Shown here: positions 4,680 through 42,929 of the stretch, piece after piece
Numbering within the stretch: position 1 is the first letter of the stretch
Layout: each line of letters opens with the position of its first letter
DNA from: an uncultured Nitrospirota bacterium
Lineage (GTDB): Bacteria > CG2-30-53-67
Length of the DNA stretch: 64,000 nucleotides
NCBI GenBank assembly: GCA_964483105.1
Contig: CAYZZU010000013.1
Span: forward strand, 3,552 to 67,551
Reading direction: 5' to 3'
Notes under the pieces: model-generated
Database searches by the model: none
Told to the model about the DNA's origin: nothing
Seen by the model: the letters and a program-made list of their open reading frames with translations, nothing else
Made by a program: the position numbers and the translations under genes

Positions 4680-6218
4680 CTACCTGGATCGGGGGAGAGG
4701 ATGACTTGCAGAATCCATCGCGTGGCACGCGTGACAACTGTTCGCGTCCTGACGCTTCGGGTCCTGCCCGCACCGGCTTCGGAAAACCTGGGGAATTTCC
4801 ATCCGTTTCCCCGAGACTTTCCCTGTCAGAAACAACCGCCCCTCATCGATCCGTACCTGGGGGAACAGCTCTCCCTCCAGGGTGAAGAGCGCTTTTTCCC
4901 CCGCCTTCCTGGAATACCTGCGCATGATCCGTTTGACCCCGGGCGACTCCCTGGAGGTAAGCGGTCGAATCCGGGGTGGATCATTCAGTGTGCCGTGACA
5001 GGTCCGGCATCGGATCCGCTCCTGGTCACGCTCACTGCCATAGAGAAAACCGTCACCCATGATCTCTTCCCCGGTGTGACAGTCGATGCAGTCGAGTTCG
5101 ACCTCACAGCGCGTGAAGAGCGTCATGGGGTTGTAGTAACTCCTCACACGACGTTCCCCGGGCGGAAGGCCTCCGATCCGGGAAAGATCCCGCCGTGGAA
5201 TAAAACGCATCTTTCGGAAGGAGTGAATTCCCCGGTTGTGACAATGGTTGCACTGAGTATGGGGAATCTTCAGTGTCAGGCGGTGAAAGGCGCCATGACC
5301 CGGTTCAGTCCGGGAAATCGTGGGATCCTTTCCCCGGTAATAGGATAAATCGTCGTAAAGGTAATGGCAGGAGGCGCAACCGGAGGCCCTGGCGAAGTAG
5401 GGATGGTTCCCGCCTGCAACCCCGAGATGGCACCGATTCACGCAGTTTTGACGCAGCCTGGTATCCACGGGATGCCCGGAAAAGGAGACCTCTTTCGCGC
5501 GGCTTCGCTCCTCCGGACGTTCAGGGAGGTCGGAGACCTTTGTATAAGGAATGGGACGGAATACCGGCAGCGCCTTCCTGTTTCCAACCGCCTGCCTCCC
5601 TTCCACACCGGACACGGCGTAGACCGCATTCAGATCCCTCTGGGCTCCGAAGGTGTACCGGGTCATGGCGATCTCCCCCGCCTTGGTGGACATGATCGAG
5701 GTACGCACGCGGTGGATTGCGTCCCTCTGATCTGAGAGAGATCCGTTGTGGCAGGAGGTTCCATCCGGCAGGGTCCGGCCGCAACTTTGATCGACCACGG
5801 AAAAATCCGATGGATTTCTCCCCCCGATCAGGCCGGTATGTGCCGTGGGAAGGGTGACGGACAAAGGGTCGCCGCCATGACACACCACGCATCCGAAGAC
5901 CTTTTCCGGATGGGACTCACTGATCGGCTCAATGCCGATATGACAGCTCAAACACCGCTCCCGTCTCCCGTCTTCCAGAACCGTCTCCTGAAGACGGGGG
6001 AGACTCCGCTTCAAGATCCGCATCTCCCGGTTGATCGCCTCCTGTGCCCGGACCGAGTCTGTTCGGGATCTCTTCGCGTTCAGCTCCTTCAACTCCCGCT
6101 TCAGATAGATCCACTGAAACACCTTGTAGGGTTTTCCCGCCTCATGCATCCGGGCCGCAAGAACCGCAAGAAACAGAAGGAACAGAAAGAGCAGCAGAAT
6201 CTCGGAATCATGTTTCAT
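4680..6218 (-). CDS. Membrane-anchored multiheme cytochrome c (7 CxxCH plus 2 atypical motifs)
   Basis: CLSCH, CVVCH, CASCH, CNHCH, CIDCH, CRTCH, CHACH plus CX9CH and CX3CH; N-terminal hydrophobic helix; ATG 6218 overlaps upstream stop (ATGA). Confidence 0.88.
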   Translation of the reverse strand: MKHDSEILLLFLFLLFLAVLAARMHEAGKPYKVFQWIYLKRELKELNAKRSRTDSVRAQEAINREMRILKRSLPRLQETVLEDGRRERCLSCHIGIEPISESHPEKVFGCVVCHGGDPLSVTLPTAHTGLIGGRNPSDFSVVDQSCGRTLPDGTSCHNGSLSDQRDAIHRVRTSIMSTKAGEIAMTRYTFGAQRDLNAVYAVSGVEGRQAVGNRKALPVFRPIPYTKVSDLPERPEERSRAKEVSFSGHPVDTRLRQNCVNRCHLGVAGGNHPYFARASGCASCHYLYDDLSYYRGKDPTISRTEPGHGAFHRLTLKIPHTQCNHCHNRGIHSFRKMRFIPRRDLSRIGGLPPGERRVRSYYNPMTLFTRCEVELDCIDCHTGEEIMGDGFLYGSERDQERIRCRTCHGTLNDPPRIRPLTSRESPGVKRIMRRYSRKAGEKALFTLEGELFPQVRIDEGRLFLTGKVSGKRMEIPQVFRSRCGQDPKRQDANSCHACHAMDSASHPLPRSR

Positions 6219-6643
6219 ACAGGCCGCAGAAAATGAGATAGTGACAGGATGACCATACCGAGAACAAGCAGAACGAAAAACAGGAAGGGAAAGAGACGCC
6301 GCCGGAGTGTCTTTGCACCTTCGCCGGTCGTCCCCGGTTGAAGAAAGGGAAGCGCCCCGATGAAAAGGAATACGGAGAGGGGAACCACCACCCCCCCCAG
6401 AAGCGGCGGAAGATAGCGGAGCATCTCCTGGACCCCCGCGAAGATCCAGGGCGCCCGGACTCCGACCGGAGTGGACACCGGATCCGGCTTCGATCCCAAC
6501 GGAGGGGGCATCCACAACGCCAGGACCATCAGGACCACGGAAGCCGCCAGCATGGCCAGCAGTTCCATCCTGACGAGCGTCTCTCTCGGCACAAACCCGC
6601 GCTCCTTATCCCGGGTCTTTTTCTTGTCCTGTTTCAAGGTCAT
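6215..6643 (-). CDS. Cytochrome b subunit IV (PetD/QcrC-like) of a Rieske/cytb complex
   Basis: Three hydrophobic helices; PDPVSTP..VRAPWIF at the PEWY-loop position; follows the cytochrome b gene. Confidence 0.75.
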   Translation of the reverse strand: MTLKQDKKKTRDKERGFVPRETLVRMELLAMLAASVVLMVLALWMPPPLGSKPDPVSTPVGVRAPWIFAGVQEMLRYLPPLLGGVVVPLSVFLFIGALPFLQPGTTGEGAKTLRRRLFPFLFFVLLVLGMVILSLSHFLRPV

Positions 6644-6689
6644 CTGAATTTCAGACGGCCGTCGGCCTCCTCTTCCCGCCGCGTCTTTC

Positions 6690-7352
6690 TCAGAGCGTCC
6701 CCGACTGCCATCCCAACCTTCGAATTTTCCAGAAATGGTTCGCCGCAAAGGCCAGGACACCGAGCGGAAGAACCACGCAATGCCAGAGATAGATCCGCTG
6801 CAGGGCGTCTTCTCCGTACGCCGGAGTCCCGGTCATCACCTGGTGGAGTCCTTGCCCGACAAGGGGGATCCGCTTCACAAGCCCCAGGGCCACGGTTCCC
6901 GCCCAATACGTATCCTGATCGAACCGGAGCAGATACCCTGAAAAGTCCATGACAAGAATCAGGGCCAGAAGCACCATGCCGACTCCCCAGATCCACCGTT
7001 TGGGCCCCTGATAGGAACCGGTCATCACCACCCGGCACATATGCAACAGAATCAGCCAGACGATTCCCTGTCCCGCCCAGTAATGCAACCCCCGGAACAG
7101 ATCTCCATAGGGCACCGCTTCCGTGATTTCGCGTACCGAAAGGTAGGCGGATCCCTGCCCGGAACGGTAGTAAAACATCAGGAGAACGCCCGTGACACAA
7201 AGGACGCAAAAGAGAAAGAAAGAAAGCCCGCCCAGGCAGAAGGAGAAGGCGATCCGGGCCCGTTCCCCCGGGATCAGGGGCGGATGCAGATGAAACAGGA
7301 AGGCACCGATCCCGCCTTTTCCCGATCCCGGACGCCTGCGGGTTGAAATCAT
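6690..7352 (-). CDS. Cytochrome b/b6 N-terminal subunit (PetB/QcrB-like)
   Basis: Heme-ligand His pairs RGLHYW...LLHMCRV and WHCVVLP...NHF; YW motif (DQDTYWA); start at 7352 after GGGAGG (7442 also possible). Confidence 0.88.
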   Translation of the reverse strand: MISTRRRPGSGKGGIGAFLFHLHPPLIPGERARIAFSFCLGGLSFFLFCVLCVTGVLLMFYYRSGQGSAYLSVREITEAVPYGDLFRGLHYWAGQGIVWLILLHMCRVVMTGSYQGPKRWIWGVGMVLLALILVMDFSGYLLRFDQDTYWAGTVALGLVKRIPLVGQGLHQVMTGTPAYGEDALQRIYLWHCVVLPLGVLAFAANHFWKIRRLGWQSGTL

Positions 7353-7428
7353 GGTAACCGCCTCCCACCCGGTGAGGAATTTATCCACACCCGCAGGGCG
7401 TGGACCTGTTTTGCCACCTGGAGATGCC

Positions 7429-7932
7429 TCATCCATCCACAAAAGTTGCTCCCAGCCGCAGCCGGAATCCCTCCGGGACCTTATGTTCCGTGTCGGCGAT
7501 TATTTCACCCTCCGGATTTTTTGTCAAGAAAACGGTCCGAAGATCCCTGACGGCGGGACCGGAGATGTAGTGACCGGAACGGTCAAAACGGCTCCCGTGG
7601 CAGGGGCATTCAAAGTAACCTTCTTTTTCATTCCATCCGAAACGGCATCCGAGATGAGGACATTTCCCACTGAACGCAAAGAGTCCCCTGTCATCCCGGA
7701 CCAGATAGATTCCCTGTTTCTTGAGTATCGTCCCCGAAGGGAAATCTCCGACGCGTCCCAGATTCATGCGGGTGGGTCGGCGGGCGGGATGTTCCACTGA
7801 AAGAAACGACTGGACCATGCGGGTCACCCCCAGCAGGGAGGCGGCGGCGCAAAGAAAAATGCCCCCGCCCAGGAATCTTCTCCGGGTCAAGCTTTTTTTC
7901 TCTGAAACGAAGGACCGGAAAAGCCCGAACAT
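7429..7932 (-). CDS. Rieske [2Fe-2S] protein with Tat signal
   Basis: CPHLGC and CPCHGS boxes; TRRRFL twin-arginine motif. Confidence 0.93.
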   Translation of the reverse strand: MFGLFRSFVSEKKSLTRRRFLGGGIFLCAAASLLGVTRMVQSFLSVEHPARRPTRMNLGRVGDFPSGTILKKQGIYLVRDDRGLFAFSGKCPHLGCRFGWNEKEGYFECPCHGSRFDRSGHYISGPAVRDLRTVFLTKNPEGEIIADTEHKVPEGFRLRLGATFVDG

Positions 7933-7949
7933 CTTCGACACCGTGTCCG

Positions 7950-8873
7950 TTACTCGATCATGCCGGTCAGCTGCCCGCCATAGGTCACGACCAGACGCAG
8001 AATAAACCCGCCCGCAATGATCAGGATGCTGCTCACAATCCCCATGATCGGATGCCATGCGCGATGCATCTTCCGCACAAAGAAGGGGAAGATTTCCGTC
8101 AGCTCGATTGCGAGGGGGATGAGCAACCCCAACAGGACCGTCCCCACCCAGAACAAAACGGTAAAGCGACCTCCCAGGATCACGAAGATCGACTCACGGA
8201 TACTGAGGGTCGAAAGCTGACTGTGGAGGATGATCGGAATGATAATGAAGATCTCGATGGTGATCAGGACCACGTCGAAGGAGACAAGAAACTTGTGTTC
8301 GTACTCCTTGATGGTTTCAGGTGACCGGTAGGGGTTCAAGGAACAGATCAGAAGAAGCGTGGCCACACCTGTGGAGAGGGCTGAAAAAAGAAAGAGTTCC
8401 GCCATGAGTGGTGTGTTCCAGAACGGCCTGGAAGGTATCGCACCGAGAAGAATGCCGGTATAAATCCCGACCCCGAGGGCGATCGGAAGCCCGATGAGCC
8501 CCGTGGTTTTCCGGACGCGGCCTTCAAAGGGAATCCGGATTTTCTTCCACCCGTCCGGCAAAAAGGTATAGGCCCGGATCATACTGATGAGAATAAAAAC
8601 GGCCAGCAGCCAGGAACCGATGGACATGGGAGAAGTCCACTGGATGGTTCTGTACAAATTATAGAAATGAAAGGGCCGTCCCAGATCGAAAAGAAGCAGG
8701 GTGCATCCGATGGTAACCGGGATGGGGGCGATATAGGCCCCCATCCGGATGATGTTACGGTACCGCTCCGGTTCCATGTAGGAGGCGAAGACAGAGGTGA
8801 CGAAGGCCCCCGCGCTGATCCCCGCCAGAAAAAGATACCAGACAACCAGTGCGCCCCATTCATATTCTTCCAT
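7950..8873 (-). CDS. NrfD/PsrC-family polysulfide reductase membrane subunit
   Basis: WGALVVWYLFLAGISAG, LLFDLGRP, SPMSIGSW, YTGILL...RPFWN; about 8 TM helices. Confidence 0.92.
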   Translation of the reverse strand: MEEYEWGALVVWYLFLAGISAGAFVTSVFASYMEPERYRNIIRMGAYIAPIPVTIGCTLLLFDLGRPFHFYNLYRTIQWTSPMSIGSWLLAVFILISMIRAYTFLPDGWKKIRIPFEGRVRKTTGLIGLPIALGVGIYTGILLGAIPSRPFWNTPLMAELFLFSALSTGVATLLLICSLNPYRSPETIKEYEHKFLVSFDVVLITIEIFIIIPIILHSQLSTLSIRESIFVILGGRFTVLFWVGTVLLGLLIPLAIELTEIFPFFVRKMHRAWHPIMGIVSSILIIAGGFILRLVVTYGGQLTGMIE

Positions 8874-8942
8874 GGGCTTGCCTCCCTTGTAAAAGCCCTG
8901 TCGCTCACCCGGAAGGGTGATCCCGGACTTTCTACGAGACCC

Positions 8943-9497
8943 CTAAATATAGTAGACGGCCGGTCCCGATCCCGCCGCAGACAACTTGACATGGTATTCA
9001 TGCGTCGCGAGCAACCGGGAGACCTCACTCCACGGATCGCGGATATTCCCGAAGTGCCTGGCGCCGGTCATGCAGGTATGAACACAGGCCGGGTCCAGAC
9101 CGGCCGTCAGGCGATGCACGCAGAAGGTGCACTTGTCCACTACGCCTTTCTTTTCATCGAAATAGCGCGCGTTGTAGGGACAGGCCATGATGCAGTAGCG
9201 GCACCCGATACAGCGATCCTGGTCGATCAGAACGATTCCATCCGCACGTTTGTAAGTCGCCCGGGTCGGGCAGACCCGCTCGCAGGGGGGGTTCTCACAA
9301 TGCATGCAGTTTCCCGGCTCGAAACTCAACCCGAGGTGGGGAAAAACTCCCTTGGGACCTTTTTCCCGGACCCAGTTTCGGGAATAGCCGACGGGCACAC
9401 CGTTCTCCGCCTTGCAGGCCACCATGCAGGCCCTGCAATCGATACACTTCGCGATCTCAATGACAAAGACATATCGTATGCCGCTTTTCCCCTTCAT
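8943..9497 (-). CDS. 4Fe-4S dicluster electron-transfer subunit (PsrB/PhsB/NrfC-like)
   Basis: CIDCRACMVAC, CMHCENPPCERVCP, CIGCRYCIMACPY, KCTFC...PACVHTC; start at ATG 9497. Confidence 0.93.
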   Translation of the reverse strand: MKGKSGIRYVFVIEIAKCIDCRACMVACKAENGVPVGYSRNWVREKGPKGVFPHLGLSFEPGNCMHCENPPCERVCPTRATYKRADGIVLIDQDRCIGCRYCIMACPYNARYFDEKKGVVDKCTFCVHRLTAGLDPACVHTCMTGARHFGNIRDPWSEVSRLLATHEYHVKLSAAGSGPAVYYI

Positions 9498-9511
9498 ATC
9501 CTGATTCCTTT

Positions 9512-11746
9512 CTACGCCGGCGCCTTGATGACCGACACCAGGGTCTGGGATAAGGCCTGTGATCCGCTCACCCGGTCGGTCACGCTTTCGTGAACATCGG
9601 TATCCAGCGACCCTTTCGAGTAAGTCACGCGGAGTCCCTTCGAACGATGTCCGAACCCGAAACTGGTCCACAGACAGTCGGGCCGGATCCTCTCGGTGAC
9701 CTTCGCCCTGATCCGGATTCTTCCGACCCGGCTTTCCACATAGACCTCATCTCCATCGCGGATGCCCCGGACCGCGGCCGCGGAGGGATGGATCCAGAGA
9801 AGATTCTCAGGAACCAGTTCGCTGAGCCACCGGTTGTTCTGGGTCGAAGACTGCGTCATCTGGGCCACCTTCCCGGTGAGAAGATAAAACTGCCCCCGCT
9901 CCGGCCGTGGCAGCTCCCTCCATTTCGGCACGGACGGGAACCCCACCTGCGCAAGGGTATCGGAAACCAGGTCGATCTTACCGCTCGATGTCTGAAAAGC
10001 CATCTTCTTTTCAGGATCTTCCGTCCCGAACCTGAAAGATTCCTGATAGAACCCCTTCTCCTTCAACTCCTCCAGGGAGATCTTCATCGGCTTCAACTGC
10101 TCACGGAGATAATCCTCTTCATTTTCATACAGAAAGTAATCGTGAAGTCCGAGACGTTCCCCTAAAAGCTTGAAGATTTCAAGCCCCGGTTTTGTGTCAT
10201 ACATGGGGGAAACAACGGGCTGCCTCAGAAAGACGCGATTTCCCACCACGCTCAGGGGATCGTACCGTTCCAGGTAGGTGCACTCCGGAAGGATCACGTC
10301 CGCGTAATAGGCGGTATCATTCGGTATGATATCGATCGATACGATCAGGTCCAGTTTTTTGAACGCCTCCAGGGTCCTGGACCGGTCGGGAAGCGACATG
10401 AGCGGATTCTGCCGGTACATCAGCCATCCCTTCGCCGGATAGGGCTTTCCCTCCAGCACGGCGTCCCGGAGTTCCTGGAACACACCGAGTTTCAGGGGAA
10501 CCAGGGGGTACTTCAGGGGAACGCCGTCCAGACGCATGGCCGCGGTCCGCGGATAGGGGGGCTGCGCGAAACACCCCAACTGAAGACCGCCGCTCTCCCC
10601 GCCGGAGGTCTGAAGGCCTCCGGGCTGTTCCCAGTTTCCGACCAGCGCGTTCAGGATCGCGATGGCCCGTTCGGTCTGGAAGGAATTCAGGGTGTTGGAT
10701 GTCCTCCAGTTTGGATGGGCGAAGGCTTGAGGCGCCGCCCCGGCGAATTCCCGGGCCACCTGGTCAATCCGGTCGGCCGGGATGTCACACTTCTTTTCCG
10801 CCCACTCCGGCGTGTACGGCCGGATCTCCTCCGCCAGCTTACGAAAACCCGAAGTGTGCTTTTCCACGAATTCACGGTCGTACAAACCCTCCGAGATAAT
10901 GACGTGATTCACGGCAAGGAAGAAGGCGAGATCCCCGCCGGGCCGAACCGGCAGCCAGAGCGAAGCCTTGGCGGCCGTCTTGGTGAAGCGTGGGTCCAGC
11001 ACAACCACCCGGACCCCCCGGCTGACGGCACGCATCAGGTCCTGGGTCTCCGAGTTCGAGATGCCTTCCAGCAGGTTTCTTCCGTTATAGATGATATAGC
11101 GCGTGTTTTCATAATCCCCCGCCACCGCCGAGGTACCGTAGGTCATCGTGAACCCCATCACCATGGCGTTGAAACAGAGGCTCCTCTGCGTCCCGTAATT
11201 CGGTGTACCGTAGGCCTTCATCAGGTTCTCAAACTGCAGTTGCGCCAGATTATGGGTCGAGCTCATCACCATGGCCTGGGGTCCGTATTTTTCCTTGATC
11301 CGGATCATACCGTCGGCGACATAGTCCAGGGCCTCATCCCAGGAGACCTTTCTGAACTTGCCGCTTCCGCGCTCCCCGACACGCATCATCGGCGCCTTGA
11401 GACGGTCCGGATCATAGAGGGTCATCATCCCCGCGTTCCCGCGGGGACAGAGTTTTCCCCGTGAATGAGGATGGTCCGGATTTCCCTCCAGCTTGACCAC
11501 AACCCCGTTTTTCACCCTGGCCCGGACTCCACACCGCCAGACACACATTTCGCAGAGTGTGGCCTTTTCATACAAACGTCCGGGATTTTCATCATCCTTT
11601 CGTTCCCCGGCCAACGTCAGAGAACGGAATCCCGTGAGTCCCGGGGCCAGGGCGGCTGCCGCAACCGACGCACCTCCGACCGTGAGAAAACGGCGTCGCG
11701 ACATTTTCCATCCGGAAACCGGTTGATCAGATTGTTTGGAATTCAT
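9512..11746 (-). CDS. Molybdopterin oxidoreductase catalytic subunit (PsrA/PhsA family), Tat-exported
   Basis: SRRRFL Tat motif; CEMCVWRC...C FeS motif; QRSLCF with Cys as probable Mo ligand; C-terminal molybdopterin dinucleotide domain. Confidence 0.9.
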   Translation of the reverse strand: MNSKQSDQPVSGWKMSRRRFLTVGGASVAAAALAPGLTGFRSLTLAGERKDDENPGRLYEKATLCEMCVWRCGVRARVKNGVVVKLEGNPDHPHSRGKLCPRGNAGMMTLYDPDRLKAPMMRVGERGSGKFRKVSWDEALDYVADGMIRIKEKYGPQAMVMSSTHNLAQLQFENLMKAYGTPNYGTQRSLCFNAMVMGFTMTYGTSAVAGDYENTRYIIYNGRNLLEGISNSETQDLMRAVSRGVRVVVLDPRFTKTAAKASLWLPVRPGGDLAFFLAVNHVIISEGLYDREFVEKHTSGFRKLAEEIRPYTPEWAEKKCDIPADRIDQVAREFAGAAPQAFAHPNWRTSNTLNSFQTERAIAILNALVGNWEQPGGLQTSGGESGGLQLGCFAQPPYPRTAAMRLDGVPLKYPLVPLKLGVFQELRDAVLEGKPYPAKGWLMYRQNPLMSLPDRSRTLEAFKKLDLIVSIDIIPNDTAYYADVILPECTYLERYDPLSVVGNRVFLRQPVVSPMYDTKPGLEIFKLLGERLGLHDYFLYENEEDYLREQLKPMKISLEELKEKGFYQESFRFGTEDPEKKMAFQTSSGKIDLVSDTLAQVGFPSVPKWRELPRPERGQFYLLTGKVAQMTQSSTQNNRWLSELVPENLLWIHPSAAAVRGIRDGDEVYVESRVGRIRIRAKVTERIRPDCLWTSFGFGHRSKGLRVTYSKGSLDTDVHESVTDRVSGSQALSQTLVSVIKAPA

Positions 11747-12440
11747 GATCCCGCTCCTCGTCGTCCAGATTGCAATTCAGGTTCCTTCGTTCCATCACGG
11801 CAAAATTTTTCAGAAGCCTGGCCATCACCCTGTAGTAGGGAACTCTGCCGCAGGAACGGATCCTTTCGCAGAATTCCGGGACCCAGGGAAGGAGGTGTTC
11901 ATCATAGAAATCACGTTCCCGGATGCGAAGGATCCGAAGCCCGGACTGATCGTTCTCCTCCCACATCTGCCGCTCCGCGAGGCACAGCCACTGAAGATAT
12001 TCGAGCTGTGTCACGATATGATCCGGAAGTTCTCCTGTATCGGTCAGGACCAGGCCCTCCGACTCATAGATGGAGAGACAATCCAGGGCCGCCCGGCCCA
12101 TCACCCTCCCTTCACGGTAACAGGACTCGTAAGGGGGCGCGCAGTGGGTCGGAAAGTCATTCACGAAAAGTCTCATGTACTCCACCTCCAGGGCCGTCAG
12201 GACCTCCCGCGCAACCGCTTCGCCCCTCTCTTCCAGGGGCAGGGGCAACGCCCGGATTTCCCTCATCAGTTCCGAAGGGAAACAGCACCGTGTTTCGACC
12301 CGGGGGCACTCCTGGACCACCCGCTCCAGACTCTCCGAGAACCGTCCGTCCACCACCTCCGCGGCACGATCCAGGTCCGGAGGGTAAAAGGCGGAACGGA
12401 GCAGGTCATAGAGAAAAATACGGGTCTTCAGCCGATTCAT
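11727..12440 (-). CDS. TorD/DmsD-family redox-enzyme maturation chaperone
   Basis: EYMRLFV...PPYESCY...ELPDHIVTQLEYL...FYDEHLLPWVPEF; start at ATG 12440. Confidence 0.9.
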   Translation of the reverse strand: MNRLKTRIFLYDLLRSAFYPPDLDRAAEVVDGRFSESLERVVQECPRVETRCCFPSELMREIRALPLPLEERGEAVAREVLTALEVEYMRLFVNDFPTHCAPPYESCYREGRVMGRAALDCLSIYESEGLVLTDTGELPDHIVTQLEYLQWLCLAERQMWEENDQSGLRILRIRERDFYDEHLLPWVPEFCERIRSCGRVPYYRVMARLLKNFAVMERRNLNCNLDDEERDHEFQTI

Positions 12441-12451
12441 CGATCTTCCCT

Positions 12452-12985
12452 CTACAGGCGCCTCAACCGGAAAAAGTAAAAAAGCAGCGAGGCAAAGGTC
12501 ACGAAAAAAAGAATAAAGGTCCAGGGGTGCACATTCCAGAGGTCCGGAATCACCACCGCGCCGTAATCGGCGAACCTGGAGATTCGGGGGAAAACCGCCT
12601 GGTAGGTCGAGGCATAGATTCCGCCTCCCACCAGAAACCCCAACACCCCGGGAATCAGATAATCGAGTCTGCCCGCGCCGCCCCCGGCGACGCATGTCCC
12701 GGGTCAGAATCCTCCGACGGCCATCCCCACACCGAATATCAGGCCGCCCAACACATTCCCCACAATATAGGTATTGGGAACATTCGCGATCGAGTAGATT
12801 CCGAGACCTTTCATCAGATAGACGAGGGTCATGGAGACCATGAGGGTGCTCAACATGAACTTCAGTACCGTAAAATCCCTGAAGCGGAACTGGTTGACGA
12901 TCGTATCGTACCGTGTCAGCCGAGCCTTGTTCAGAAGAAAACCGAAAAAGAAGCCAAAGACCAATGCCGAGACGATCCAGTTCAT
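12452..12985 (-). CDS. YeeE/YedE-family sulfur-compound transporter half, probable selenoprotein (UGA at 12704-12706)
   Basis: ORFs 12704-12985 and 12452-12646 are in frame; junction reads GMAVGGF-TGA-PGT where the family has G-x-C-P-G-T; SECIS-like hairpin follows. Confidence 0.85.
12672..12703 (-). other. Candidate bacterial SECIS element
   Basis: After TGA: CCC-GGGACAT-GCGTCGCC-GGG-GGCGGCGC-GGG; upper stem of about 8 bp, G-rich apical loop starting about 19 nt after the UGA. Confidence 0.7.
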
Positions 12986-12986
12986 T

Positions 12987-13517
12987 TCAATACCTCCTCC
13001 GATAAAGGATCAGGGTCGTGATCACTCCCGACACGAAAAGACCGGCCGTGAACAAAAGCCCCGCCGGCGCCAGAAGCATGGTCCCGGAGATCGCAAGGCC
13101 GCTGGTGCATCCGCCGGCAAGACTGGCGCCGTACTCCAGGATCATGCCGGCCAGAAACGCCGCCAGCCACCGTTTCCATTTTTCAGGACCGAAGATCTCC
13201 CGCCACTGCGTGGTGACATGACTCAGATGGAAGGTCTTCGATAAGAGGGAGGAGGTCATCGCACCGAGGAAGACCCCCGCCATGAGAATCAACTGCCAAT
13301 TGATCCCCAACTGCCGGATGTACTTGAAAAACAGGTTGTCCGCCAGTTTCGGCGCCAACGCCCTTTCAACCAGACCGCTTAAATTCAGAAAACTTCCTGA
13401 AGCCCCGATCAGGTGCCCGGTCAGTACGGGCGCCAGGGCCACGACGATGCCGAAGAGCGCTCCGGCCGCGTAGGGACTCCACGACTCCCTTGTCAATATC
13501 TTCCAGATCCGGTTCAT
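12987..13517 (-). CDS. YeeE/YedE-family sulfur-compound transporter half
   Basis: WSPYAAG, GASGSF, GVFLGA and LAGGCTSG motifs; multiple TM helices. Confidence 0.9.
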   Translation of the reverse strand: MNRIWKILTRESWSPYAAGALFGIVVALAPVLTGHLIGASGSFLNLSGLVERALAPKLADNLFFKYIRQLGINWQLILMAGVFLGAMTSSLLSKTFHLSHVTTQWREIFGPEKWKRWLAAFLAGMILEYGASLAGGCTSGLAISGTMLLAPAGLLFTAGLFVSGVITTLILYRRRY

Positions 13518-13581
13518 GTTCGCCTCCAGGGTCTTATGACACTCTGCAAACGGGACGCTTTCCCGCGAAACGCCCCCAAAC

Positions 13582-14274
13582 CTAAGCGGTCTTCCCCTTC
13601 TCCCGGGCCGGGCCGGATCTCCGGTAAAACCAGGAGAGAAAGGGGAATCCGAGAAAGAGGAAAAGAGTCAAGAGAAGCAGAATCCGGTCTCCCACGGTTC
13701 CGGGAAGTCTCCACCTCGCTTTCCCGGACCGGTCAAGGTTGTAATCAATCAGATCCCCCCGGGGCACTTTGGAAGGATCGGGGGTGGGGGGGGCGATCAC
13801 ATATTCACGGTTCCCGGAGGAGGTCTCTTTTGCTTTTCCCCCCTTCTTCGTGGTCGACCCCTTTTCCGTCCCGGCCGCAGGTAATGAAACGCTCTTTGAA
13901 GGACCTCCGCCAGCCTGGATCACCGCGCCGTACAGAACGGCACGCTTTTCATAATCATCCGGATGGCATGCGGCACAGCTCTTCTGTAGATTTTCCAGGG
14001 GCCTGACCATTCCCTGGTGGGATTCAACCCGGGTCGTTCCCGCCGTATTCCCGGAATGGCAGAACACGCAGAAATCACCGAAGGCATGCTGTGCATGATA
14101 CGCACCTTTGGTATTGACCCGCATCGCCCCTCTGATTTCATGACAGTTTTTACAGGACGAGGCCGACGCTCCGCAGGCCCCTTCCACGGACGCGGGAAGA
14201 AGCCATACCAGGAACACACAAACCCAATAAAACGAGATTCCTCTGCCGGACATCCCCCACCCTGGTCCCCTCAT
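13582..14274 (-). CDS. Exported triheme cytochrome c with C-terminal membrane anchor
   Basis: CKNCH, CVFCH, CAACH; N-terminal signal-like segment; C-terminal hydrophobic helix; start at 14274 after AGAGGAG. Confidence 0.82.
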   Translation of the reverse strand: MRGPGWGMSGRGISFYWVCVFLVWLLPASVEGACGASASSCKNCHEIRGAMRVNTKGAYHAQHAFGDFCVFCHSGNTAGTTRVESHQGMVRPLENLQKSCAACHPDDYEKRAVLYGAVIQAGGGPSKSVSLPAAGTEKGSTTKKGGKAKETSSGNREYVIAPPTPDPSKVPRGDLIDYNLDRSGKARWRLPGTVGDRILLLLTLFLFLGFPFLSWFYRRSGPAREKGKTA

Positions 14275-14350
14275 CGGCGGTCTCCTCTTCTTGACCTGAT
14301 GATTCGTAACGGAAGAAAACGCTGCCAACCCCTCTCGTATTTTCATAGAA

Positions 14351-14366
14351 TGCAAGAAAGGTGCCA
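14351..14366 (-). promoter_or_regulatory. Sigma-54 promoter of the respiratory operon
   Basis: Minus strand TGGCAC-CTTTC-TTGCA, matching the -24/-12 consensus. Confidence 0.9.
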
Positions 14367-14459
14367 TCATATTCACTATTTCGAATATTCACATAACATT
14401 ATGATTTTTCGCTTGATTTACGTGCCACGATCCGCAGCGGAGAAAAAAAGCCCCCGGCG

Positions 14460-21703: not shown

Positions 21704-21781
<78 letters not shown>

Positions 21782-24105: not shown

Positions 24106-24182
<77 letters not shown>

Positions 24183-25138: not shown

Positions 25139-26914
25139 CTAACCTCCCGCCTCTTCCGACCCGTTATCCCAATCCCAATCCAGTTCCCCCGGAAAGTGGG
25201 ACTGCATATACTCCCGGGTATAATCTTCAATTTCCCGGGCGGAAGTGAGGGAAAGAATTTCCCGGGCCAGCTTACGGGAATCTTCCATGGTGACCTGGCG
25301 GATAATTCTCTTGACCCGGGGTATGGATACGGAATTCATGCTGAACTCCCGCAGTCCAAGCCCCAACAGGGCGGAGGCGTACAGAGGATCTCCGGCCACC
25401 TCGCCGCACATGGCCGCCGGAATGTCCGCTTCCCGTGCCACGGTCATCACATGTTTGATCATCCGTACAATCGCCGGATGGAGCGGCTCATACAGATAGG
25501 CCACATGTTCATTGACCCGGTCAATCGCCAGAGTGTACTGGATCAGATCGTTGGTGCCGATACTGACAAAATCGACCTCTTCGGCGATCAAGTCGATCAC
25601 GATGGCAGAAGAGGGAACCTCAATCATCGCACCGACGGGAATGTTCTCCTGACACAGGACTCCCTCCTTGCGGAGTTCTTCCAATACTCCGTAAAAAAGA
25701 TCCTTGGCCATGCGCAGTTCCCTGACACCGGAAATCATGGGAAACATCACCTTGAGATCGCCATAGACACTGGCCCGTGCCAGGGCACGAAGCTGCGTCT
25801 TGAAGATCTCCTGATGTTCCAGACAAAACCGGATGGCCCGGAGTCCCATGGAAGGATTGGCTTCTCCGGAATAGGGCACGTGTTCAATCAACTTGTCCCC
25901 TCCGAGATCCAGGGTCCGGATCACCATCCCTCCCGGATAGACCATCTCCAGAACATTTTTATAAGCCTGGAACTGCTCTTCTTCCGAGGGCAGATCTTTC
26001 CGGTTCAGGTACAGAAATTCGGTGCGGAAAAGCCCGACGCCGTCCGCTCCATGCTCCAGGACCCCGCAGACATCGTCCGGGGCCTCGATATTGGCCAACA
26101 GACGAATCTTGCACCCGTCGCGGGTCTCCGCCGGAAGGGCTGAGATTTTCTGAAGCTCGTTCTCAAAATAGATGTAACGTCTCCGTTTTTCCAGGTACCG
26201 GTTGAAGGTTTCATTATCCGGATGAAGAATGACCTTGCCGCTGTTCCCGTCTAAAATCAGGGGATCGCCGGTTTTCACCCAGGCCGTGATATTCCCGATT
26301 CCCACGACGGCCGGTATTTTCAGGGAACGTCCCATAATCACCGTATGACTGGTCTTCCCGCCCAGGTCCGTGGCGAATCCCTTCACATACTTCTTCCCCA
26401 TCTGCATGGTGTCGGCCGGTGTCAGATCATGGGCCACGACAATGACCTCTTCTTTCAGGTCAGCCAGATTGACCTGATCCGATCCGGAAAGATTGCGCAA
26501 GATACGCTCCCCTACATGAACGATATCAGACTTCCGATCCTTCAGGTAATCATCCTCCACTGTGTTGAAGATCCGCAGGAAATCGTCCAACACCTTTCGC
26601 AGGGCACCTTCGGCTGCAATCAGTTCCTTCCGGATCACGTTCCGGGTCCCGTCGGTCAGCATCGCGTCTTTCAGCATCAGGATATGACTCTCCAGGATGT
26701 AGTTGTGAGAATCCCCGAAATGCTCGCTGAACTGTTTCTTGATATTCTCCAGTTGCTCCACGGACTTGTACAGAGCCTGCTCAAAACGTTCGATCTCTTT
26801 TCCGACCTCATCGGGTGAAATCATGGAAGGTTCCGCCTTCACCTTTTCCCGGTTCAGGACAAAAGCCTTTCCAATCACGATTCCTGATGAGACTCCCAAT
26901 CCCTGGAATTGCAT
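25139..26914 (-). CDS. ptsI: PTS enzyme I
   Basis: GGKTSHT phospho-His motif, GLFRTEF, RTLDLGGDK, MGLRAIR, SIGTNDL. Confidence 0.97.
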   Translation of the reverse strand: MQFQGLGVSSGIVIGKAFVLNREKVKAEPSMISPDEVGKEIERFEQALYKSVEQLENIKKQFSEHFGDSHNYILESHILMLKDAMLTDGTRNVIRKELIAAEGALRKVLDDFLRIFNTVEDDYLKDRKSDIVHVGERILRNLSGSDQVNLADLKEEVIVVAHDLTPADTMQMGKKYVKGFATDLGGKTSHTVIMGRSLKIPAVVGIGNITAWVKTGDPLILDGNSGKVILHPDNETFNRYLEKRRRYIYFENELQKISALPAETRDGCKIRLLANIEAPDDVCGVLEHGADGVGLFRTEFLYLNRKDLPSEEEQFQAYKNVLEMVYPGGMVIRTLDLGGDKLIEHVPYSGEANPSMGLRAIRFCLEHQEIFKTQLRALARASVYGDLKVMFPMISGVRELRMAKDLFYGVLEELRKEGVLCQENIPVGAMIEVPSSAIVIDLIAEEVDFVSIGTNDLIQYTLAIDRVNEHVAYLYEPLHPAIVRMIKHVMTVAREADIPAAMCGEVAGDPLYASALLGLGLREFSMNSVSIPRVKRIIRQVTMEDSRKLAREILSLTSAREIEDYTREYMQSHFPGELDWDWDNGSEEAGG

Positions 26915-26915
26915 G

Positions 26916-27182
26916 CTATTCCTCCCCAAACTTGTCATTCACCAGCCGGTCCAGGCTTTCGATGGCCTCGTCTTCATCGGGTCCGTCGGCCTGAATGAGC
27001 AGTTCGGTTCCTTTGGCGGCAGCAAGCATCATTATTCCCATAATACTCTTCCCGTTCACCTCGATATCATCGCGTTTGACTGTAATTTCCGACTGGAAAC
27101 GATGGGCGACTTCCACAAACATCGCAGCGGAACGGGCGTGCATCCCCAGCTTGTTCTGAATCACGACTTTTGCTTCCTGCAT
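26916..27182 (-). CDS. ptsH: Phosphocarrier HPr
   Basis: GMHARSA (His15) and GKSIMG (Ser46). Confidence 0.96.
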   Translation of the reverse strand: MQEAKVVIQNKLGMHARSAAMFVEVAHRFQSEITVKRDDIEVNGKSIMGIMMLAAAKGTELLIQADGPDEDEAIESLDRLVNDKFGEE

Positions 27183-27188
27183 GGCTCT

Positions 27189-27968
27189 CTAATCCATTAA
27201 AAATGGGCTCCACCCCATGAACGAAAGAATCTGAGATACGGCCAAGAGGGAAAAAACCTGCAGTGGTAACGGAACCCTTTTGGCCTCCGCATACCAGGCC
27301 GCGGCGATCAGGAACAGTGGCACCCCCACCCCCTTCAGAAAAGAAATCTCACCACCGGAAGCCGTCTGCATCCCCCAGAGTGACAGAAACGCTCCGGACA
27401 GAAAAAGAATCATCCCGCCCATCCAGTGGATTTTTTTCTGAAGGTTGATCTTCTTCAGATAGTTCAATACCTGGATACCGTAGGCATATCCGTTCCGGAT
27501 ACCGGCCCACCGAAGCCATAAGGTAATCCCGTTATAGGCCAAAAGAAAAACGAGAGGCGCCACATTCTCGAACACTACGGAAACCATGACCGCTAAAAGA
27601 GCGGCCAATGGTCTGAGAGAACCCCACACAAAGGAGTCACCCAGGGCGCCCAGCGCCCCCATCAATCCCCTCTTCAACGACTCCACCTGCTCCGGAAGCA
27701 GAACCCCGTTGAACCGTTCCTCTTCAAGACGGAGCGTCCCCCCCACGACCAATCCGGCCATATACGGATTGGTATTAAAAACCTTCAGGTGCCTCTGAAG
27801 ACACTCCCGGAGGAAAGGCTCTTCAACCGACAACCTCTTCAGAAAGGGAATACACGCAAAGGCAAACCCGATCCCCTGGAAGTTCTCATAGTTCCAGGCC
27901 GATTGAATCAGCATCCCTCTGAACAGGGTTCTCACCAGAAGAGAATGCGGAAGCCTTTTCTCCTTCAT
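27189..27968 (-). CDS. PTS mannose/fructose/sorbose-family IID component
   Basis: QSAWNYENFQG, FNTNP, LMGALGALGDS. Confidence 0.92.
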   Translation of the reverse strand: MKEKRLPHSLLVRTLFRGMLIQSAWNYENFQGIGFAFACIPFLKRLSVEEPFLRECLQRHLKVFNTNPYMAGLVVGGTLRLEEERFNGVLLPEQVESLKRGLMGALGALGDSFVWGSLRPLAALLAVMVSVVFENVAPLVFLLAYNGITLWLRWAGIRNGYAYGIQVLNYLKKINLQKKIHWMGGMILFLSGAFLSLWGMQTASGGEISFLKGVGVPLFLIAAAWYAEAKRVPLPLQVFSLLAVSQILSFMGWSPFLMD

Positions 27969-27971
27969 TTC

Positions 27972-28745
27972 TCACCCTCCATGGGGAGCGCGACGAGACT
28001 CCCAGAACACAACCGCCACGGCGGACAGGATCAACACACAAAGAGCGGCCCCGTCCGGCTCGATTCCCTTAAAAACACTCCATGAAATCAGGACCCCCGC
28101 AGTACCAAGCACCCAAACTCTCGACAGGTTCTGCCGATACAACAGGGAAGCGATCCCGACACAGGGGAGAAAGAAAAGAAACAGCCGCAACCCCTGCAGC
28201 ACACGTTCCGGCAGGAGCATATACCCGCTCCGGATCCAGGGACCGAAGATCCCCGCCCCCAAGAAAATGATCAGAAAATAATACAGAAAGAAGATACCCA
28301 ATCCGATCCACACCGCCCGGGTGACCCCTCGGTCCAGAGAATAAGAAGACTTCGCAACCCGAATGAGAAAGGCGTTCTTCCTCCGAACCCACTGATTCAG
28401 ATAAGCGGCCGGAAACAACAACGCACCCACCCATAAAACCACCCACGCCACCCAGGCTGAGTCAATCGTCCCACCGGAAGGCGCTTCCAGCAGAACCACA
28501 GCGGTGGTCAGAACCGCGGCCAGGGTTGCATCCTTCGGAACATGGCCGCCTACGGGAAGTCCCCTCAACCAGAAGACCTCCAATACCACGCCGATCAAAA
28601 GGCCGGCATGGAAATTCCCGGTCATCCATCCGATCACCGGCGCGGCCACAATCGGTTGTGAAACCATGAACTGACCGAAGGCCAACCGGTCCAGCCCGAT
28701 GATCCCTCCGACCACCGCGATCCGCAACACATCCCAGAATTCCAC
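27972..28745 (-). CDS. PTS mannose/fructose/sorbose-family IIC component
   Basis: GLDR...QFMVSQPIVA, G..LE.FWL..LPVGG; GTG start after GGGAGG. Confidence 0.88.
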   Translation of the reverse strand: MEFWDVLRIAVVGGIIGLDRLAFGQFMVSQPIVAAPVIGWMTGNFHAGLLIGVVLEVFWLRGLPVGGHVPKDATLAAVLTTAVVLLEAPSGGTIDSAWVAWVVLWVGALLFPAAYLNQWVRRKNAFLIRVAKSSYSLDRGVTRAVWIGLGIFFLYYFLIIFLGAGIFGPWIRSGYMLLPERVLQGLRLFLFFLPCVGIASLLYRQNLSRVWVLGTAGVLISWSVFKGIEPDGAALCVLILSAVAVVFWESRRAPHGG

Positions 28746-28990
28746 TTTCCTCCCGCGCGCTCGCGTTCCCGTATACAGACAAATACCTGCCACTTCGGCT
28801 GAGGTCCCCTCCATCCAACACGTTCCTGAATCAAACCGATCCTTGCCGCCTTCGTAATCCACCTTTCGCGAGGCGACCCAAAGAGAGGCAGGGGGAAGTC
28901 CGGCCACGGCAACGTTCAAAGATCGATGTGTTCCACAAAAGACTGTTCAGAAGGACTCGACAACCGGAGGGGATTCAGCCGGAACGGCTA

Positions 28991-29464
28991 TCACACCATA
29001 CTCTGCAAATCAACCGCCGGCTCCGAAGGAACAGGACGCACCATAATGTGGACTCCGAATCCGAGAATTTTCTTCAGATCCTGCAGGTCCGGCTCGGAAA
29101 CGAGGACGCCTCGTCCCAGTGACCGGGTTTCCCCATCGGAATGGAGCCCCCCCAGGTTCAACCGTTGAATGGAGAGCCCGGCATTCAAGGCGGTCAGAAC
29201 ATCTTTCGGCGACCGGAACAGAAAGATCCCCCGGCAATCGACATACGCTCCCTCCATACAGCGGCGTGTCGCTTCCAAGACCGGCAGAATCTCGGTCCGT
29301 ACCCCATAGGGTACGACCATCTCCATCAGGGTACGTTGAAACTCACTCCCGGCCGCTTCATCATCAGCCACGACAACCAGATCCGGATGGACCGTACGAA
29401 ACCATCCCTCCACAACCTGACCATGAATTAACCGATCATCAATCCGAAACAGAACAATTCCCAT
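28991..29464 (-). CDS. PTS mannose-family IIB component
   Basis: RIDDRLIHGQV. Confidence 0.94.
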   Translation of the reverse strand: MGIVLFRIDDRLIHGQVVEGWFRTVHPDLVVVADDEAAGSEFQRTLMEMVVPYGVRTEILPVLEATRRCMEGAYVDCRGIFLFRSPKDVLTALNAGLSIQRLNLGGLHSDGETRSLGRGVLVSEPDLQDLKKILGFGVHIMVRPVPSEPAVDLQSMV

Positions 29465-29501
29465 AAACCCCTTCCAACTTACTGATACCGCGGTCGAAAG
29501 G

Positions 29502-29918
29502 TTACCCCCGTTGTCCCTGTCCCTGCTTCAAAAGCGAGCTGGCCACAATAATTCCCCGTTTGCCGGCCTCTTCAAGCCGGGAAGAAAGTTCTGTCAAAGA
29601 ATACTCCTTACGCAAGGCTATCCCCTTGATCAGCATGGGCAGATTCACACCGCTGACCACTTCCACTCTCTGGTTTTCGAGGAAAGAAAGGCTGATGTTG
29701 GTCGGAGTCCCCCCGAACATATCGGTCAACAGGATCACTCCTTCGCCATCATCCACCCGGCGAATGGCGTCCAGAATCTCTCTGCGGGCAGTCTCCACGG
29801 TCTTGGTGAAATCCACGGATACGGCCGCTACCCCTTTCTGTTCCCCTAAGATCCCCTGAAGGCAGATACAAAGTTCCTTACCTATACTCGCATGGGTAGC
29901 GATTACAAAACCGACCAT
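29502..29918 (-). CDS. PTS mannose-family IIA component
   Basis: VIATH, LTDMFGGTPTN, GVNLPML. Confidence 0.93.
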   Translation of the reverse strand: MVGFVIATHASIGKELCICLQGILGEQKGVAAVSVDFTKTVETARREILDAIRRVDDGEGVILLTDMFGGTPTNISLSFLENQRVEVVSGVNLPMLIKGIALRKEYSLTELSSRLEEAGKRGIIVASSLLKQGQGQRG

Positions 29919-29993
29919 CTTGTCTATTCTCCTTTCGTTTACCGCTTCCACTTGAATGAAACTCGACCGGCTTCCGCGGAGGAGAGAGGCCGT

Positions 29994-30869
29994 TTACTCA
30001 CGATCCGTGTCGATATCCCGATACCGGACCGAAGTTCGATATCCTCGTTCTTCAAGATGTTTCTTCACAACATCCGAGATCACCACGGAGCGGTGGCGAC
30101 CACCGGTACAACCAATCCCGAGGGTCAGGTAGGACTTCCCTTCCCGGATATACCTGGGGACCAGAAAATCCACCAATCCGTACAGACGATCCAGGTATTC
30201 CCGCGTTTCATCACGATCCAACACATACCGGATCACGTCCGGATCTTTTCCGGTCCGTCCCCGGAGGCGGTCGACAAAGTAAGGGTTCTGGAGAAACCGG
30301 ACGTCCAGGACCATATCCGCCTCGGTGGGGATTCCGTATTTGAAACCAAAGGCGACCAGGGAAATGGACATTTCCACGCCTTTCTCGGATGGCGTGAAGT
30401 GTTCCCTCAGCAGTTCCCTGAGATCATGAACGTTAAAATCCGATGTATCAATGACCATATCCGCGCTCTCTTTCACATCCGAAAGAATTTCGCGTTCCAG
30501 ACTCAATCCTTCCCGTACGGAGGATTCGGACAGAGGGTGTCTTCTCCTGGTTTCATGAAACCGGTGAACCAGAACCTCGTCCGATGCATCCAGAAAGAGG
30601 ACCCTGCAGTTCGCACCACGTTCCTGGATCACGGCAAGAACCTCGTGGTAAGGTTTCAGGAACTTTTTCTCGCGGATATCCACAACCAAGGCCACCCTTT
30701 CGATCTCGTTGCCCCGCTGAGTACACAGTTCAAGGAATTTCGGGATCAAGGTCATCGGGAGGTTGTCCACGCAGAAAAACCCCATGTCCTCAAACTGGTG
30801 GATTGTCGTGCTTTTCCCTGAACCGGAGATCCCGCTGATGATCACCAGGTCCAGATTCCGTTTCTTCAT
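29994..30869 (-). CDS. rapZ: RNase adaptor RapZ
   Basis: GISGSGKS, VDNLP, DVRFLQNP, GCTGGRHRS. Confidence 0.95.
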   Translation of the reverse strand: MKKRNLDLVIISGISGSGKSTTIHQFEDMGFFCVDNLPMTLIPKFLELCTQRGNEIERVALVVDIREKKFLKPYHEVLAVIQERGANCRVLFLDASDEVLVHRFHETRRRHPLSESSVREGLSLEREILSDVKESADMVIDTSDFNVHDLRELLREHFTPSEKGVEMSISLVAFGFKYGIPTEADMVLDVRFLQNPYFVDRLRGRTGKDPDVIRYVLDRDETREYLDRLYGLVDFLVPRYIREGKSYLTLGIGCTGGRHRSVVISDVVKKHLEERGYRTSVRYRDIDTDRE

Positions 30870-31812: not shown

Positions 31813-31898
31813 AATAAGGACCCCGCTGAAAACCGATCAGCGCGCAAGGACAGGCTCCGGAGGATTCAAGCATATCAAACAGACGCGGATAAACACAA

Positions 31899-32366
31899 TC
31901 AGGACCCGTACTGGTCATCCTCCTGGCAAATCCGGGAATAAATCTCCTCCCCGTTCCGGGACTGCATCAAGCGTTCACGGAAATTTCGACTCTTCAGAAT
32001 TCTGGAGATCCTCGCCAGCGCCTTTAAATGATCGCCCGGAGAATCTTCCGGAGCAATCAAAACGAAAAAGATGTGAACCGGCTTTGCATCCATCGAGTCA
32101 AAATCAATTCCTCGTCTGGAGAGACCGAATGCCAGGACAAGACGGTCAAGGTCCTTCAGTTTTCCGTGGGGAATGGCAATCCCGTCACCGATTCCCGTAC
32201 TTCCCAGGGCTTCCCGTGCAAGGATCACCTCCATGAACTCGTTTTGATCCGATATTTTCTTGTGTTCATAAAGAAGCGCGGCAAACTCGTTAAGAACCTC
32301 TTGTTTGTTGCTCCCTTTCAGATCGGAAAGGACAAGATCGGGGTCCAGAATATCCGTAAGCTTCAT
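31899..32366 (-). CDS. ptsN: PTS IIA-Ntr-like protein
   Basis: REALGSTGIGDGIAIPHGK; rpoN-operon position. Confidence 0.92.
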   Translation of the reverse strand: MKLTDILDPDLVLSDLKGSNKQEVLNEFAALLYEHKKISDQNEFMEVILAREALGSTGIGDGIAIPHGKLKDLDRLVLAFGLSRRGIDFDSMDAKPVHIFFVLIAPEDSPGDHLKALARISRILKSRNFRERLMQSRNGEEIYSRICQEDDQYGS

Positions 32367-32423
32367 CGATACCCTCTTTTCAGTCCCACAAAGCAAGGAG
32401 TTTCAGAGTCAGGATATGGATCA

Positions 32424-42912: not shown

Positions 42913-42929
42913 AACCGGGACTCCTTCTT

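Follow-up and report, generated by a model that had tools for sequence, protein, structure and literature searches.

A predicted selenocysteine site in the N-half-like subunit of a split YeeE/YedE transporter from an uncultured Nitrospirota bacterium

An in-frame UGA at a conserved cysteine position

Does a TGA codon in the middle of a gene for a half-length YeeE/YedE-type transporter end translation, or does it encode selenocysteine (Sec), and, in the latter case, has this Sec site been catalogued before? The question is raised by a gene on the minus strand of a 64,000-nucleotide stretch of DNA (referred to as the window here) from an uncultured Nitrospirota bacterium (contig CAYZZU010000013.1, positions 3,552 to 67,551). 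Direct translation of the frame 12985..12452 gives 177 sense codons and one internal stop, the TGA of codon 94 at 12706..12704, in the context GGA GGA TTC TGA CCC GGG ACA, i.e., G-G-F-stop-P-G-T. The residue that follows this motif is Cys98, giving GGF-U-PGTC if the TGA stands for Sec, and exactly 83 sense codons lie downstream of the TGA before a TAG at 12454..12452. A first-pass annotation, made from the sequence alone, had reported both the UGA in this motif and a frame that stays open for 83 more residues, and translation confirms the two. It had also expected standard callers to split the gene, and public gene calls on the source contig indeed cut it into pieces of 93 and 64 amino acids (aa), as does a mechanical list of open reading frames (ORFs), in which the second piece is a GTG ORF (12646..12452). 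We read 12985..12452 as one gene that probably encodes a 177-residue selenoprotein, a reading to which we assign a rough probability of 0.87. The comparisons described below show the codon-94 UGA to behave as a decoded rather than a terminating codon, with a hairpin of the selenocysteine insertion sequence (SECIS) type tied to it.

The protein, referred to as the Sec half here, matches the Pfam family PF04143 (Sulf_transp) with 60.3 bits against a cutoff of 27, in agreement with the YeeE/YedE membership proposed in the first pass. The match covers profile positions 9-149 of 310, and that of the product of the adjacent upstream gene (the partner; 65.8 bits) covers positions 168-309 of 310, i.e., the Sec half corresponds to the N half and the partner to the C half of the profile. 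Many database homologs of the Sec half are ∼183 aa long and 55-65% identical to it, come mostly from Chloroflexota, and are annotated as YeeE/YedE or DUF6691; those with Cys at the position of the UGA (also ∼183 aa) share 55-62% full-length identity with the window protein. When 15 homologs were aligned with the window protein, the codon-94 stop fell on the nearly invariant Cys of a CPGTC motif, a column in which no fewer than 90% of the 16 sequences have Cys. Among the matches listed, 118 of 120 database homologs have Cys in this column and the other two have Trp. Two gene calls from JGI metagenomes, P0066 and P0102, show Trp here in the Sec-type context LTGY-W-PGTC, which is probably a TGA translated by the caller under a TGA = Trp code and thus a second kind of misannotation.

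Orthologs alternate between UGA and cysteine codons

The ortholog scan used one genome per species and yielded 80 loci from the closest species-level genomes, or 81 together with the window. At the Sec column, these 80 species-representative genomes have TGA in 45 cases, TGC in 32, TGT in 3, and TAA or TAG in none, which gives 46 TGA loci (45 genomes plus the window) to compare with 35 Cys loci. Both the Cys- and the UGA-containing orthologs that the first-pass annotation had proposed to look for are therefore found, and its refuting case, in which orthologs never show UGA at this column, was not borne out. The TGA-form genomes are mostly Anaerolineae, and the two closest relatives of the window (L001 and L002, with 76-77% identity) both have TGA. 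A neighbor-joining tree of the loci requires at least seven Sec/Cys switches. Such repeated switching is the dynamic pattern typical of selenoprotein families, and alternation of Sec and Cys at a functional Cys is presented as a classical selenoprotein signature in PMC1794560 and PMC13188914.

A one-base change (TGC or TGT to TGA) would suffice to turn a Cys codon into the TGA, be it through a mistake in sequencing or assembly or through a nonsense mutation private to one strain, and the first-pass annotation had allowed for reads that might show TGC or TGT. However, the identical codon-94 TGA is present in five independent assemblies (contigs from three JGI metagenomes and from two SRA runs that were assembled independently), and TGA also occurs in the 45 other species-level genomes. 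We regard an error or private mutation as having a negligible chance of explaining the codon.

If the TGA were instead a true stop, the locus would hold a decayed or naturally split gene, that is, a 93-residue fragment with or without a separate C-terminal protein from the 64-aa GTG ORF. Automatic annotation reads the locus in just this way, and among the ordinary stops of the window genes TGA is the most frequent, ending 16 of 30, the partner gene among them. The choice of codon speaks against this explanation, given that the internal codon is TGA in 45 of the 80 species and TAA or TAG in none, whereas the genuine gene end of the TGA loci is TAA or TAG in 41 of 46 cases. The frame past the TGA is also kept, remaining open for 83-94 codons in all 46 TGA loci. 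After the TGA, the three codon positions have diversities of 0.21/0.11/0.53, compared with 0.20/0.10/0.52 in the 60 codons upstream, and this third-position-weighted diversity, equal on both sides, indicates that the downstream part is translated and under purifying selection. Furthermore, a protein starting at the 64-aa ORF would lose the highly conserved segment PGTCxAGxGxGxLDYLIPG. On this evidence, and on that of the hairpin described next, a true stop appears very improbable.

A SECIS-type hairpin tracks the UGA

The hairpin in the window has a 9-bp stem, including one G-U and one U-G pair, with a folding energy of −14.4 kcal/mol. Its stem starts 9-10 nucleotides (nt) past the UGA, and its apical loop, GGG at 12685..12683, starts 18 nt past the UGA. 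The stem-loop with a G-rich apical loop noticed in the first pass is thus present, but its start, placed there at about 19 nt after the UGA, has to be corrected to these two distances. As the criterion for a hairpin of this type, we used the four bacterial SECIS (bSECIS) constraints given in PMC13188914, all of which the window hairpin satisfies. Across the loci, a bSECIS-compliant hairpin occurs in 45 of the 46 TGA loci versus 2 of the 35 Cys loci (Fisher p = 3.6e-19, with the kinship of the genomes ignored). The hairpin therefore tracks the TGA state, which also argues against a true stop.

Folding energies in a fixed 30-nt window differ in the same direction, at −14.1 kcal/mol for the TGA loci versus −10.3 kcal/mol for the Cys loci (Mann-Whitney p = 9e-10). 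Under a synonymous-codon null, an equally strong SECIS-type hairpin was obtained in 2.1% of 5000 recodings of the window peptide (p = 0.021). Three hairpin designs can be distinguished among the loci, with the loops GGU/GGC/GGG, GGUC, and CGGGA and the matching peptides AAGGG, VAGSG, and AAGSG; these designs, with their matching amino acid changes, show that the stem is kept by different sequences. In the commonest register, 97.2% of the cells are paired, with six pairs that vary only via G-U and one pair that changes from C-G to U-A. The two Cys loci with a compliant hairpin, L031 (around position 3151) and L045 (around position 823), have TGC at the Sec column, yet they carry exact Sec-type hairpins. 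Given that these hairpins are kept and that the two loci are nested among Sec forms, this suggests that they are recent Sec-to-Cys conversions with a relic SECIS.

Weighing selenocysteine against selenium-free read-through

A decoded UGA need not be decoded as Sec. Near-cognate or suppressor insertion of Cys or Trp, or a lineage-specific change of the code, would likewise give a full-length protein, one that is free of selenium, and the gene calls P0066 and P0102 show that some pipelines took TGA to mean Trp. Against this explanation, the code appears to be the standard one, with TGA not reassigned, because TGA terminates more than half of the window genes, including the partner gene that ends 1 nt upstream of the Sec gene. 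In addition, the residue aligned with the UGA is Cys, neither Trp nor Gly, and a G-loop hairpin that is fixed in position, found in all but one of the TGA loci and lost in 33 of the 35 Cys loci, would be left unexplained by unassisted read-through. The Sec/Cys alternation at a functional Cys likewise speaks for Sec. We consider selenium-free read-through to be quite improbable.

The search for the genes needed to insert Sec favors both a true stop and selenium-free read-through. The window and its surroundings up to a distance of 10 kb contained none of selA, selB, selC (tRNA-Sec), and selD. Rfam and ARAGORN scans of the window yielded neither a tRNA-Sec nor a match to an RNA family, the only hits being two tRNA-Pro genes, and the gene calls from about window position 2,990 to 10 kb past the right end (positions 6,537-76,581 of the 112-kb source contig) included no selA, selB, or selD; Pfam-annotated gene calls begin past the window's first 3 kb, which were covered by the tRNA and Rfam scans only. 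These scans agree with the first-pass annotation, which had listed no selA, selB, selC, or selD in the window. A scan of the window for genes with in-frame TGA returned 100 candidates, mostly spurious overlapping ORFs in DNA of 55% GC, and is uninformative.

Besides the negative search for Sec genes, several other points weigh against a selenoprotein. The significance tests given above count related genomes as independent. The hairpin lies in a Gly/Ala-rich, GC-rich coding stretch in which hairpins arise easily, and the plain fold of the 73 nt after the UGA, with z = −0.78 relative to dinucleotide shuffles, is unexceptional for GC-rich sequence, which is why the synonymous-codon null and the Sec/Cys ortholog contrast were used instead. 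Strict compensatory covariation is thin, since it amounts to one pair in two sequences and the observed score is reached by 23 of 500 shuffles. Finally, a monomer AlphaFold model of the Cys homolog P0002, built from 41 sequences, had a predicted local distance difference test (pLDDT) score of 57.5, too poor for geometry.

The proposed Sec aligns with an essential pore cysteine

Residues 6-105 of the Sec half align with residues 4-102 of Spirochaeta thermophila YeeE (6LEO) with E = 3.7e-8 and without gaps around the motif. This alignment places U94 on Cys91, and the equivalent of Cys22 is Thr24. In the S. thermophila protein, thiosulfate uptake requires Cys91 and Cys293, two residues lining the central constriction (PMC7449682). 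The earlier claim that the UGA falls on a conserved Cys thus gains support both from the nearly invariant column and from an essential residue of a homolog of known structure.

The partner has a single Cys, C137 (codon 13109..13107), located in the motif GGCTSG. In 81 of 81 loci, the partner lies upstream of the N-half gene and bears this Cys, consistent with the first-pass observation that the partner half keeps Cys. By homology, Sec94 would take the central pore position (equivalent to Cys91) and Cys137 of the partner the outer position (equivalent to Cys293). Apart from the Sec94 position and Cys137, the only further cysteine in either subunit is Cys98. A Cys at this +4 column is present in 46 of 46 Sec forms, while 6 of the 35 Cys forms show Ala instead. 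The two genes are closely spaced: 1 nt separates the TGA stop of the partner gene (12989..12987) from the start codon ATG of the Sec gene, whose Shine-Dalgarno sequence, GGAGGAGG, falls within the 3′ end of the partner gene.

Relation to catalogued selenoproteins and known transporters

The first-pass annotation had left open whether this family is already catalogued. For the family name, it is: selenoproteins of the YeeE/YedE family are listed in PMC9312934 and PMC13188914 (motif GUxSG, with WP_012471001.1 as representative), and a supplementary table of Peng et al. 2016 (PMC5029168) contains five YeeE/YedE selenoprotein sequences from five organisms. The GOS 2008 paper, which is cited for the family, makes no mention of it under the YeeE/YedE selenoprotein name. 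For the Sec site described here, the answer is different, because the catalogued protein is a partner-type subunit with its Sec in GUPSG. We took the sequence of WP_012471001.1 from the deep-Sep supplement and found it to be 35% identical to the window partner (E = 3e-33), with the Sec of its GUPSG motif aligned with Cys137, whereas its comparison with the window Sec gene gave no significant similarity (E = 0.86). The two types are alike in belonging to PF04143, in being split half-transporters, in having Sec in place of a conserved pore Cys, and in carrying the SECIS inside the ORF. They differ in that WP_012471001.1 is C-half-like, with Sec at the Cys293 equivalent, whereas the window protein is N-half-like, with Sec at the Cys91 equivalent in a U-PGT-C motif. 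The Sec gene thus falls outside the catalogued GUxSG group, whose homolog in the window is the partner, with Cys in GGCTSG.

A metagenome scan with the catalogued, Geobacter-type subunit (L089-L168) gave Cys/Cys pairs in 80 of 80 loci, but one search pattern demanded a Cys codon, so that the scan was biased against Sec and is uninformative on its frequency. In these Geobacter-type loci, the GG[C/U]PSGHG subunit is paired with a PmpB-like subunit that has the motif GYCPGT[S/Q/A/I], i.e., without the +4 Cys that all Sec forms of the present family have. The 2026 selenoprotein catalogue lists the partner-type subunit only and contains no entry for UPGTC, UxxxC, PF20398, or DUF6691, BSepDB and GenBank annotations being outside this comparison. 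The locus thus adds a new Sec site to the already known YeeE/YedE selenoprotein family, located in the subunit complementary to the catalogued one. New bacterial selenoprotein subfamilies turn up regularly, and the parent family was already listed. For annotation, the finding concerns a widespread gene that standard callers split or mistranslate with Trp, and many genomes would be corrected by a model made for this family.

The Sec half falls short of the cutoff of every NCBIfam model. The models for TsuA (NF041049 and NF052577) give 21.8 versus a cutoff of 645 and 36.3 versus 400, respectively, both far below. The fold family is nevertheless common to the Sec half and to TsuA/YeeE of Escherichia coli and S. 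thermophila (6LEO, 6LEP, and 8J4C), for which a cysteine-lined, hourglass-shaped pathway has been proposed (PMC7449682). TsuA/YeeE is a full-length protein of nine helices with C22, C91, and C293, whereas the window half is a separate polypeptide of half that length without the central helix and with Thr24. No YeeD/TsuB-like gene was seen adjoining the window pair, whose context is respiratory (Psr-like), in contrast to the cysteine assimilation of TsuA. The Sec half is therefore not a TsuA ortholog, though it may be similar in its working. YedE/FdhT, a putative selenium transporter of the same superfamily, is linked to selenium metabolism (PMC5322559, according to the summary in PMC9312934). 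That link, however, comes from its gene neighborhood as a selenium transporter and the protein is not catalogued as containing Sec itself; moreover, the Sec half stays far below the cutoffs of its models TIGR04112 (33.4 versus 200) and NF033796 (24.7 versus 350).

The closest layout is that of PmpA and PmpB of Serratia, in which PmpB is an N half with the Cys91 equivalent and PmpA a C half with the Cys293 equivalent, and for which a heterodimer has been proposed (PMC11582611). The window pair shares this layout of adjacent N- and C-half-like genes, seen in all 81 loci. PmpA and PmpB are, however, ∼130 aa long with four predicted helices, compared with 176-183 aa for the window-type halves, and the window pair further differs by having Sec for the PmpB-type Cys, the extra +4 Cys, and a cluster with cytochrome c and PsrABC-like genes.

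Gene neighborhood of the half-transporter pair

Most of the 80 loci share a conserved module, consisting of a triheme cytochrome c, the C-half-like subunit (always with Cys), the N-half-like subunit (with Sec or Cys), a PsrA-like protein, and a 4Fe-4S protein. The coordinates of these and other features in the window are given in Table 1. The cytochrome is found in 71 of 80 loci, and that of the window is 37% identical (E = 2e-32) to the gene in the same position in Chloroflexota loci. A PsrA-like homolog follows the half-transporter pair in 75 of 80 loci. In the window, this molybdopterin subunit scores 639.7 bits with the NCBIfam PhsA model, just short of the cutoff of 694, and matches the polysulfide reductase PsrA of Thermus thermophilus (2VPW) with E = 4.4e-141. 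Callers differ on its start, giving either a 744-aa form with a twin-arginine signal, which shares 20 nt with the end of the TorD-like gene, or a 678-aa form without the signal.

The module is common to Chloroflexota (Anaerolineae) and the lineage of the window. It spans 4680-14376 on the minus strand of the window, and its counterpart lies at about 1500-6500 in L003-L080. Beyond the shared genes, the window has a TorD-type chaperone, an NrfD anchor, a Rieske protein, a split cytochrome b, and a sigma-54 response regulator, and its module also holds a 512-aa protein with a below-threshold match to the cytochrome c7 family of Pfam. The gene content of the window module suggests a Psr-type reductase that is connected to a bc-type complex. 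In the Chloroflexota loci, an ArsR-family regulator is located upstream of the module, as is PigS for pmpABC (Gristwood et al. 2011, as related in PMC11582611).

Table 1 Features of the half-transporter locus and its surroundings in the window
Feature	Position	Strand	Basis or remark
Read-through gene, PmpB-like (N-half-like, DUF6691-type) YeeE/YedE subunit	12452..12985	-	Translation, PF04143, homologs
In-frame UGA, codon 94, proposed selenocysteine codon	12704..12706	-	Cys column, orthologs, 6LEO alignment, five assemblies
Cys98 codon TGC, four residues past Sec94, candidate resolving Cys of a U-x3-C pair	12692..12694	-	
SECIS-like hairpin UGCGUCGCC-GGG-GGCGGCGCG	12674..12694	-	Folding, bSECIS constraints, ortholog contrast
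Shine-Dalgarno sequence GGAGGAGG	12993..13000	-	Sequence read directly; 7 nt upstream of the ATG at 12985
Partner, PmpA-like (C-half-like) YeeE/YedE protein, 176 aa	12987..13517	-	PF04143, 81/81 loci
c-type cytochrome with three CxxCH motifs (CKNCH, CVFCH, CAACH), first gene of the module	13582..14376	-	Longest ORF; callers start further in
TorD/NarJ-type molybdoenzyme chaperone	11727..12440	-	PF02613, 88.8 bits
PsrA/PhsA-like molybdopterin oxidoreductase catalytic subunit with twin-arginine signal	9512..11746	-	NCBIfam PhsA, 2VPW
4Fe-4S subunit (PsrB/TtrB/DsrO-like)	8943..9671	-	Conserved in 67/80 loci
NrfD/PsrC-type membrane anchor	7950..8873	-	PF03916, 179.5 bits
tRNA-Pro genes (anticodons CGG and GGG)	21705-21781, 24106-24182	-	2.3 kb apart; only RNA genes detected in the window

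Proposed working model

We propose that UGA94 is read as Sec under the direction of the hairpin within the ORF, whose G-rich apical loop would act at its distance of 18 nt downstream. Translation of the Sec subunit would be coupled to that of the upstream C-half-like subunit (13517..12987), and the two halves would assemble into a pseudo-symmetric heterodimer that corresponds to a single full-length YeeE/TsuA. We infer coupling and heterodimer formation from the 1-nt gene gap, the adjacency of the genes in all loci, and the heterodimer proposal for PmpAB in PMC11582611.

Within such a heterodimer, Sec94, Cys98, and Cys137 of the partner could act as a relay by which a sulfur (or selenium) species is passed along the constriction. 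Sec94 would be the more nucleophilic center, possibly with a transient Se-S bond to the substrate or to Cys98, and Cys98 might be either the third member of this relay or the resolving residue in a U-x3-C pair. The pair may work with the neighboring triheme cytochrome c and the PsrABC/PhsABC-like periplasmic molybdoenzyme, in which case Sec, with its stronger nucleophilicity, would accelerate the transfer of a sulfur species tied to the Psr/Phs-like reductase. The most likely cargo is a compound consumed or produced when polysulfide or thiosulfate is reduced, e.g., thiosulfate, sulfane sulfur, or sulfite; selenium species are a further candidate. Across phyla, the pair is tightly linked with a PsrA/PhsA-like molybdoenzyme as well as with a triheme cytochrome, and this points to an undescribed membrane step, which is suggested to belong to polysulfide or thiosulfate (or selenium oxyanion) respiration.

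For the pore cysteines of YeeE/TsuA/SoxT, two roles have been put forward, namely, hydrogen bonding of thiosulfate (PMC7449682) and covalent hand-over of sulfur (PMC11582611). The repeated exchange of the central Cys for Sec, always in the presence of the +4 Cys, is a pattern of redox-active or nucleophilic cysteines, and it makes the chemistry of the pore residues testable. A bolder version of the model, which we find tentative and rather doubtful, is that the pair constitutes a selenium-dependent covalent chalcogen relay, from Cys137 to Sec94 to Cys98, and is an obligatory part of an unrecognized respiratory module made up of the triheme cytochrome c, the Sec/Cys half-transporter pair, and the PsrABC-like molybdoenzyme. 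If this were true, the pair would not be a passive anion channel, and sulfane sulfur (or selenium) would cross the membrane as Se-S intermediates. The natural occurrence of Sec in one subunit of the present family and in the other subunit of the Geobacter-type GUPSG family would then argue that the pore cysteines throughout the YeeE/TsuA/SoxT superfamily are nucleophiles rather than hydrogen-bond donors.

Other features of the window

Two adjacent genes for MoeA-type molybdopterin molybdenum-transferases, one of them fused to a periplasmic-binding-protein-like domain, are located at 40936-44207 on the minus strand and are followed by a RACo-like (reductive activator) gene at 39313-40935, which fits a heavy investment in molybdenum and tungsten enzymes. 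A complete type II secretion system (T2SS) set (C, D, E, F, G-K, PilM/N, and M) occupies 51793-63992 on the plus strand, and the region 25139-33182 contains a mannose-type phosphotransferase system (PTS) with HPr kinase and RapZ, adjoining rpoN and lptC/lptA-like genes. The T2SS set and the lptC/lptA-like region indicate that the organism is diderm. The MetK protein encoded in the window is 80-87% identical to proteins of metagenome-assembled genomes and 72-74% identical to proteins of Nitrospinota and Nitrospirota.

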